DNA of 2,827 bases. Source: Enterobacteria phage CUS-3. The notes under the pieces were generated by a model. That model worked only from the letters and a program-made list of their open reading frames with translations. It did no database searches and had not been told where the DNA came from. The position numbers were made by a program, and so were the translations under genes. The stretch lies in sequence record FN394999.1; one strand, 5' to 3'. Shown piece by piece: positions 1 through 1,762 of the stretch (the first letter of the stretch is position 1; each line of letters opens with the position of its first letter).

Positions 1-543
1 ATGGCACGCCCAACAAAGTATCAAGAGGCGTATGCCGAACAGGCACGCAAACTGTGCTTGCTGGGCTACACCGATGCAGAACTTGCTGATTTCTTTGAAG
101 TCAGTGAGTCAACTATTAACAAGTGGAAGCTTGATTATCCTGAGTTTTCGGAGTCCATAAAAAAGGGTAAGGCCGTCGCTGATGCAGAAGTTAGTGATCG
201 TCTTTATCAACGCGCTATGGGCTTCGTGGCTCCAGATATCGATATTCGTGTTATTGAAAACAGAATTGTCGAAACTCCGCTTGAGAAGTATTACCCGCCT
301 GATACAACCGCTGCCATTTTCTGGCTTAAGAACCGACAGAAGGATAAATGGCGCGACAAGGTTGATCACGAGCTAACAGGCAAAGACGGCGGCGCAATTC
401 AGATTGAAACATCACCGATGAGCACTCTATTCGGAAAANNNNNNNNNNNNNNNNNNNNNNNNNNNNNNNNNNNNNNNNNNNNNNNNNNNNNNNNNNNNNN
501 NNNNNNNNNNNNNNNNNNNNNNNNNNNNNNNNNNNNNNTCTGA
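1..543 (+). CDS. Small-terminase-like DNA-binding protein (HTH-type, Sf6 gp1-like family); 3' end lies in or just after the N run
   Basis: ATG at 1; frame 1 is open through 438 (146 readable codons), then the N run; the first visible in-frame stop is TGA 541-543. The translation has an HTH-like segment (TDAELADFFEVSESTINKWK) followed by AAIFWLKNRQKDKWRDK, a pattern I recall from phage small-terminase DNA-binding domains. The true stop may lie inside 439-538. Confidence 0.6.
   Translation: MARPTKYQEAYAEQARKLCLLGYTDAELADFFEVSESTINKWKLDYPEFSESIKKGKAVADAEVSDRLYQRAMGFVAPDIDIRVIENRIVETPLEKYYPPDTTAAIFWLKNRQKDKWRDKVDHELTGKDGGAIQIETSPMSTLFGKXXXXXXXXXXXXXXXXXXXXXXXXXXXXXXXXXX
439..538. other. Run of 100 N (masked or unsequenced); hides the 3' end of gene 1 and the start of the tailspike-like gene
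   Basis: Directly visible as n characters in the sequence. Confidence 1.
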
Positions 544-1762
544 GCCATGTGTAAAATATTATGATGGCATTCTGTATCTGACGACCAGGGGGACATTAAG
601 TACTCAACCCGGTAGTTCATTGCACAGAAGCTCTGATTTAGGTACATCATGGAATTCTCTTCGCTTCCCAAATAATGTTCATCACTCAAACCTTCCTTTT
701 GCCAAAGTTGGCGATGAGCTGATTATTTTTGGCAGTGAGCGCGCATTTGGTGAGTGGGAAGGAGGAGAACCTGATAACCGTTATGCAGGAAACTATCCAA
801 GAACATTTATGACCAGAGTTAACGTCAATGAGTGGAGTCTGGATAATGTAGAGTGGGTTAATGTTACTGATCAGATTTATCAGGGCGGAATAGTTAACTC
901 TGCGGTTGGTGTTGGTTCAGTTTGTATCAAAGACAACTGGCTGTACTACATTTTCGGTGGGGAAGACTTTCTAAACCCATGGAGCATAGGGGATAACAAC
1001 AGAAAATATCCTTATGTTCACGATGGTCACNNNNNNNNNNNNNNNNNNNNNNNNNNNNNNNNNNNNNNNNNNNNNNNNNNNNNNNNNNNNNNNNNNNNNN
1101 NNNNNNNNNNNNNNNNNNNNNNNNNNNNNNNNNNNNNNNNNNNNNNNNNNNNNNNNNNNNNNNNNNNNNNNNNNNNNNNNNNNNNNNNNNNNNNNNNNNN
1201 NNNNNNNNNNNNNNNNNNNNNNNNNNNNNNNNNNNNNNNNNNNNNNNNNNNNNNNNNNNNNNNNNNNNNNNNNNNNNNNNNNNNNNNNNNNNNNNNNNNN
1301 NNNNNNNNNNNNNNNNNNNNNAGCGGCGGTGAAACAACGTCTTCAGCAGATGGTGCAATGATAACGTTGCATGGTTCCGGAAGCAGTACTCCACGTCGCG
1401 CGGTATATAACGCACTCGAACATCTTTTTGAGAACGGAGATGTTAAACCTTATCTTGATAATGTAAATGCTCTTGGTGGTCCGAGAAACAGGTTCTCGAC
1501 AGTTTATCTTGGCTCCAATCCTGTGGTTACCAGTGACGGAACATTAAAGACAGAGCCGGTCTCTCCTGACGAAACATTGCTGGATGCCTGGGGTGACGTC
1601 AGGTATATCGCTTATAAATGGCTGAACGCTGTCGCTATAAAGGGGGAAGAAGGGGCGAGGATACATCATGGTGTAATCGCGCAGCAACTTCGTGATGTTC
1701 TTATTTCTCACGGACTCATGGAAGAAGAAAGCACAACATGCCGCTATGCCTTTCTTTGCTAT
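542..1762 (+). CDS. Tailspike/tail-fibre-like protein with sialidase-type (Asp-box) region and C-terminal S74 intramolecular chaperone domain; endosialidase-like candidate; both ends hidden in N runs
   Basis: Frame 2 (positions congruent to 2 mod 3) has no stop in any readable codon from 422 onward. Translation 542-1030: EPCVKYYDGILYLTTRGTLSTQPGSSLHRSSDLGTSWNSLRFPNN...NPWSIGDNNRKYPYVHDGH. Translation 1322-1762: SGGETTSSADGAMITLHGSGSSTPRRAVYNALEHLFENGDVKPYLDNVNALGGPRNRFSTVYLGSNPVVTSDGTLKTEPVSPDETLLDAWGDVRYIAYKWLNAVAIKGEEGARIHHGVIAQQLRDVLISHGLMEEESTTCRYAFLCY. The last in-frame stop upstream is TGA 419-421, so the start must lie in 422-541. The stop is presumably inside 1763-2179. The 291-nt N run is a multiple of 3, so the frame is kept if its length is faithful. 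Confidence 0.7.
629..652 (+). other. Asp-box-like motif (S-x-D-x-G-x-S-W), hallmark of sialidase beta-propellers
   Basis: Codons 629-652 encode SSDLGTSW. The canonical Asp box is S-x-D-x-G-x-T-W; here position 7 is Ser instead of Thr. Confidence 0.55.
1031..1321. other. Run of 291 N (masked or unsequenced) inside the tailspike-like ORF
   Basis: Directly visible as n characters. The length equals 97 codons, so the reading frame is preserved across it. Confidence 1.
1532..1762 (+). other. Peptidase S74-type C-terminal intramolecular chaperone domain (partial; continues into the N run)
   Basis: S-D-G-T-L-K at 1532-1549 matches the S-D-x-x-x-K Ser/Lys dyad spacing, followed by the conserved-looking core WGDVRYIAYKW...GARIHHGVIAQQLRDVL. 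This matches my recollection of the chaperone domain of endosialidases, K5 lyase and T5 L-shaped tail fibre. Confidence 0.75.

Follow-up and report, generated by a model that had tools for sequence, protein, structure and literature searches.

Enterobacteria phage CUS-3 (CP000711) is a P22-like prophage of Escherichia coli K1 strain RS218 and belongs to the genus Lederbergvirus. The tailspikes of CUS-3, HK620, Sf6 and P22 have a conserved N-terminal domain in common, whereas the endosialidases of phages K1E and K1-5 have a short N-terminal peptide and attach through a separate adaptor protein (PMC5380687). The repeat tract of neuO, a further gene of the prophage, has also been described (PMC3046976). 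The genes, the phage, the modular structure of the tailspike and the phase-variation tract of neuO are thus already published, and the analysis reported here brings nothing new on terminases or tailspikes. As described previously, DNA packaging is the task of the small and large terminase subunits (TerS and TerL), at the start of the late operon, and NeuO is a phase-variable capsule O-acetyltransferase.

The window analysed here is the whole of record FN394999.1, 2,827 nt in length. A preliminary description, made from its letters, had placed a small terminase gene directly against the tailspike gene and left the tailspike 0 to 40 residues ahead of its catalytic region. The window consists of four readable stretches, at 1-438, 539-1030, 1322-1762 and 2180-2827, with N runs of 100, 291 and 417 bases between them; the length of 100 bases given earlier for the run at 439-538 is exact. 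The features are as follows.

1..438, plus strand: terS, CUS-3 small terminase subunit, complete coding sequence of 146 codons with the stop left out; typing locus
439..538: 100-N placeholder between two unlinked fragments; not length-faithful
539..1030, plus strand: siaK1 fragment a, residues 487-650 of 981, second half of the catalytic beta-propeller; 100% identical to CP000711
1031..1321: 291-N run, unsequenced internal siaK1; length-faithful (291 bp in CP000711 and in strain IMT5155)
1322..1762, plus strand: siaK1 fragment b, residues 748-894, end of the stalk and start of the C-terminal intramolecular chaperone domain
1763..2179: 417-N run, 3' end of siaK1 and siaK1-neuO intergenic region; length-faithful up to the neuO ATG
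2180..2827, plus strand: neuO, polysialic acid O-acetyltransferase, its ATG joined to the post-repeat coding sequence; Pfam Hexapep

Megablast against phage records retrieved at least 17 sibling CUS-3 records from various E. coli K1 strains, every one of them exactly 2827 bp long. The series and the three members that we retrieved in full are listed below.

FN394218 and FN394986-FN395002: sibling typing records, CUS-3 genotypes GT_n, 2827 bp each
FN394998: 'partial proviral terminase gene, siaK1 gene and neuO gene, genotype GT_14'
FN395000: same title, but GT_16
FN394994: GT_10, strain IMT_5155

Coding sequences at 1-438, 539-1030, 1322-1762 and 2180-2827, flagged as incomplete, were common to FN394998, FN395000 and FN394994. 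In the sibling records the first of them is annotated as 'phage terminase small subunit', partial, and the siaK1 fragment at 539-1030 is flagged as partial at both ends. The N runs of FN394994 are the same three as in the window, and the fragment edges of the inspected siblings coincide with codon boundaries. We infer the typing design from the titles and the structure of the records. All in all, the window is almost certainly a composite entry in GenBank that belongs to a typing scheme for the E. coli K1 prophage CUS-3, in which the adjacency of terS and siaK1 is an artefact. Four separately sequenced fragments, probably PCR amplicons, would have been written in phage gene order with N runs as joints, and the loci of the scheme would be the whole terS frame, two internal pieces of siaK1, and neuO without its repeat tract. 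The first N run would be a 100-N placeholder for about 16-21 kb of morphogenesis and immI-region genes, and the runs of 291 and 417 N would keep the reference length. A single record thus mixes two kinds of gap, a placeholder and length-faithful runs. Mordhorst and colleagues reportedly carried out a population study of CUS-3 and neuO in 2009. Judging by strain names and gene set, the record series is probably part of that work (Mordhorst et al. 2009, Environ Microbiol 11:3154).

The same layout might have come from a draft assembly, with shotgun contigs joined by software through a default run of 100 N. By common convention such a run marks a gap whose length is not known, and the outcome would be the same, namely an N run that is not length-faithful. 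However, the length is identical in at least 17 records that come from different strains, the fragments of the inspected siblings begin and end at the same places, all of them codon boundaries, the neuO repeat tract was cut out cleanly and in frame, and the record titles bear genotype numbers. Because assemblies made independently would not be broken at the very same positions, we regard a scaffold gap as very unlikely. Of the four explanations offered in the preliminary description, mis-assembly or a collapsed gap came closest, but the N run is a deliberate placeholder and not an assembly error.

The nearest siblings of the window were FN394998 (GT_14) and FN395000 (GT_16), which differ from it by 2 and 3 nt, respectively. 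The differences, at 1484, 1500, 1574 and 1750, all fall inside siaK1 fragment b, which makes this fragment the most variable typing locus among these near relatives. Compared with RS218 SiaK1, fragment b showed 3 nt and 3 amino-acid differences (GSGSST vs GSRSST; GPRNRFSTVY vs GPGNRFSIVY).

Alignment to the reference prophage showed that all four pieces are collinear on the minus strand of CP000711, with nucleotide identities of 97.7-100%.

Window 1-438: CP000711 22705..22268, minus strand, 97.7% nucleotide identity
Window 539-1030: CP000711 4013..3522, minus strand, 100% identical
Window 1322-1762: CP000711 3230..2790, minus strand, 99.3% identical
Window 2183-2827: CP000711 2236..1592, minus strand, 99.5% identical

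Where the window has 100, 291 and 417 N, the true gaps in CP000711 measure 18,254, 291 and 417 bp. The third run corresponds to CP000711 2789..2373, and in strain IMT5155 the neuO ATG likewise lies 417 nt past the end of fragment b. In the annotation of CP000711, the 18,254 bp contain the genes for the large terminase, portal, scaffold and coat proteins, three genes for head completion, one for head assembly, two for injection and one for DNA transfer, three hypothetical genes, the two mnt genes, ant and the first 1458 nt of siaK1. The references therefore show, in place of the short gap on which the earlier headline depended, a much longer segment with the tailspike's N-terminal domain and additional genes.

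Other genomes gave distances of the same kind. The spacing between terS and the siaK1 fragment is again 18,254 bp in UTI89, equal to CP000711, and match coordinates placed the two pieces 20,753 bp apart in phage phiv205-1 and 16,368 bp apart in vB_EcoP-720R6. A search of 5,426 complete E. coli genomes with window 1-1030 as a single query gave matches to either piece in 688, and in none of these did both pieces lie within about 1 kb of each other. Among the top matches listed for E. coli genomes, the terS and tailspike searches had no accession in common, and distances were therefore measured directly in UTI89 and IMT5155. The latter strain provides a same-strain control, since it is represented both by a record of the series (FN394994, with 100 N) and by a closed chromosome (NZ_CP005930.1). 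The terS and siaK1 fragments of FN394994 were found exactly in this chromosome, and the gaps of 291 and 417 bp were reproduced exactly, whereas the place of the 100 N is taken by 20,754 bp. Consequently, the 100 N in this record series measure no distance. The terminase and tailspike genes, which had been thought to abut, are 18,254 bp apart in CP000711 and UTI89 and 20,754 bp apart in IMT5155. For the window's own strain, we infer the distance, and with it the canonical gene content behind the 100 N, from these relatives and from the sibling strain.

These data also bear on the proposal that the window is a rearranged, defective or satellite-like element. In its concrete form this would be a real deletion, that is, a remnant of CUS-3 that has lost the roughly 18 kb separating terS from the middle of siaK1, so that the two lie about 100 bp apart. 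CUS-3 prophages can indeed be damaged, as illustrated by the tailspike gene of IMT5155, which is split by an IS66 element, and some genomes have only an endosialidase fragment with no terS match nearby. Against a deletion, the record from IMT5155 has the 100-N layout although its chromosome has 20,754 bp at this place, no complete genome among the 688 has both pieces in one place, it is not credible that at least 17 strains differing in genotype suffered an identical loss, and the siaK1 fragment is flagged as partial at its 5' end. We therefore consider a deletion extremely improbable; together with the presence of terL after terS in all references inspected, the IMT5155 control and the genome survey refute a rearranged or satellite-like element for this record series. 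There is a slim chance, no greater than that of a scaffold gap, that the unsequenced stretch in this particular strain hides a real CUS-3 rearrangement, for example an insertion sequence like that of IMT5155 or a module swap; nothing within the window points to a hidden rearrangement between terS and siaK1 codon 487.

In IMT5155 the tailspike gene is split near its 5' end by the IS66-family element (NZ_CP005930.1, L004 16093-21488). The element comprises tnpA, tnpB and tnpC (L004 16400-18712), and PGAP lists both tailspike halves as pseudogenes, so that this prophage is presumably unable to make a functional tailspike. The insertion accounts for the spacing of 20,754 bp as against 18,254 bp. 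The nearly equal value of 20,753 bp in phiv205-1 hints at the same insertion as in IMT5155.

Of the tailspike pieces, fragment a matched Pfam PF12217 (E=1.6e-104) at profile positions 192-355 of 367, and fragment b matched PF12219 (E=5e-33) and PF13884, Peptidase_S74 (E=1.4e-11). The endosialidase propeller runs in frame 2 from 539, which bears out the earlier observation of a sialidase-type region under way in that frame by 542, and the TGA at 419-421 that was said to close frame 2 is present. As the alignment begins in the middle of the domain (profile position 192/367), the piece at 539 is no gene start. Window position 539 corresponds to codon 487, in the middle of the beta-propeller, with 486 residues ahead of it in the references. 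The full-length CUS-3 SiaK1 protein has 981 residues, with the following Pfam domains.

Residues 1-113: Head_binding (PF09008), E=5e-66
Residues 146-212: End_N_terminal
Residues 213-662: End_beta_propel, with an inserted beta-barrel at 324-406
Residues 663-817: End_tail_spike
Residues 818-878: Peptidase_S74

By its sequence, SiaK1 is a conventional P22-type tailspike, in which a head-binding domain at the N-terminus is followed by an endosialidase core and, at the C-terminus, a chaperone domain. The head-binding part belongs to the unsequenced stretch ahead of fragment a. The estimate of 0 to 40 residues before the catalytic region thus fails, since the 100 N do not reflect a true length and the protein is entered at residue 487 of 981. 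An adaptor-dependent tailspike in the style of K1E, K1-5 or SP6, or a frameshift fusion of terS and tailspike hidden in the gap, had also been put forward. Adaptor-dependent endosialidases do exist in K1E and K1-5 (PMC5380687), and what suggests either arrangement here is the apparent spacing, seen in the window only. However, 40 extra codons cannot complete a catalytic domain that is entered at profile position 192/367, and the DNA of the fragment matches CUS-3 siaK1 at 100% identity, a gene whose product has a head-binding domain of the P22 type at residues 1-113. The adaptor-dependent reading fails because CUS-3 SiaK1 carries this domain, whereas K1E and K1-5 use a separate adaptor. A fusion from frame 1 into frame 2 is contradicted by terS itself, which has its own stop codon, a TGA directly after base 438, and overlaps the start of terL. 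The probability left to either arrangement is practically negligible, lower still than that of a deletion. Terminase and tailspike genes are thus not neighbours, the tailspike is not truncated and there is no gene fusion.

The first piece of the composite is the small terminase gene. Frame 1 of 1-438 is open for 146 codons and enters the first N run without a stop. Its 146 residues show 100% identity with the CUS-3 small terminase as annotated (ABQ88402, 146 aa). The profile search that had been proposed for this ORF returned the small terminase family PHROG 309 ('terminase small subunit', E=2.1e-68), together with four further terS PHROGs, while a Pfam scan of the terS frame found no family. 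In a PDB sequence search, the C-terminal 38 amino acids matched the small terminase gp1 of Sf6 (3HEF/4DYC, E~5e-11). The identification as a small terminase was therefore right, and so was the view that the gene is complete, insofar as the whole 146-codon coding sequence is present; the stop codon lies outside the window. In the reference the gene ends ...TLFGK-TGA, and this TGA was omitted from the window record. The place of terL in the window is taken by the first N run. The overlap between terS and the terL gene directly after it measures 4 nt (ATGA) in CP000711, UTI89 and IMT5155, and a large terminase lay under the 3' end of the terS match in all 60 complete genomes listed. PGAP names terS 'hypothetical protein' in 59 of these 60 genomes, despite the clear match to PHROG 309.

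The terS allele of the window differs from that of CUS-3 RS218 at 10 nt, all of them synonymous, and its best match among the listed complete E. coli genomes reached 99.5% at most. The genomes that best match terS are absent from the listed tailspike matches. Recombination or mosaicism affecting the terminase region in P22-like prophages would fit this allele pattern.

The last piece, 2180-2827, encodes a hexapeptide-repeat acyltransferase, NeuO, and differs from CP000711 by 3 nt. The phase-variable AAGACTC tract has been dropped between 2182 and 2183, with no N to mark the cut, and the junction reads ATG|TCGTTTTCC, an artificial in-frame join. At the same place CP000711 has ATG-TT-(AAGACTC)x19, in which the 19 copies amount to 133 nt and are out of frame, and the tract of IMT5155 has 18 copies (126 nt) and is in frame. 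Because the tract was omitted, the window record gives no information on this strain's neuO phase state. The neuO gene of IMT5155 is intact and in frame (L004 21642-22418). The annotation of UTI89 shows neuO only as an 'acyltransferase' ORF of 336 nt (L005 22097-22432), and this short ORF fits a repeat number that puts the full frame out of phase (phase OFF).

The apparent terS-tailspike feature is not real. The case calls for caution, as a run of N in a public record may represent loci that are not linked, and reading such runs as length-faithful leads to invented gene adjacencies, truncated proteins and 'satellite-like' architectures.

When set beside phage CUS-3 as a whole, the window has an identical TerS protein, an identical siaK1 fragment a and the same order of terS, siaK1 and neuO as CP000711. 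In contrast, it is a 2.0-kb sample of a 40.2-kb prophage, and it represents another genotype of the typing scheme, with 10 nt differences in terS, 3 in siaK1 fragment b and 3 in neuO. The TerS protein resembles Sf6 gp1 (PDB 3HEF, 4DYC) in its last 38 residues, which are nearly identical (…GKDGGAIQIETSPMSTLFGK), and each of the two is about 140-146 aa long and is the product of a P22-like phage gene just upstream of terL. Unlike this end, the N-terminal ~108 residues of CUS-3 TerS gave no significant phmmer alignment with Sf6 gp1 and fall in PHROG 309. The N-terminal part is thus of another sequence type than that of Sf6 gp1, which suggests that CUS-3 TerS may be a mosaic protein. Finally, the K1E and K1-5 tailspikes share with CUS-3 SiaK1 one endosialidase catalytic family (Pfam End_beta_propel / End_tail_spike). 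The adaptor-type arrangement of K1E and K1-5 finds no support in the window, and CUS-3 SiaK1 differs from their tailspikes in having its own P22-type head-binding domain.
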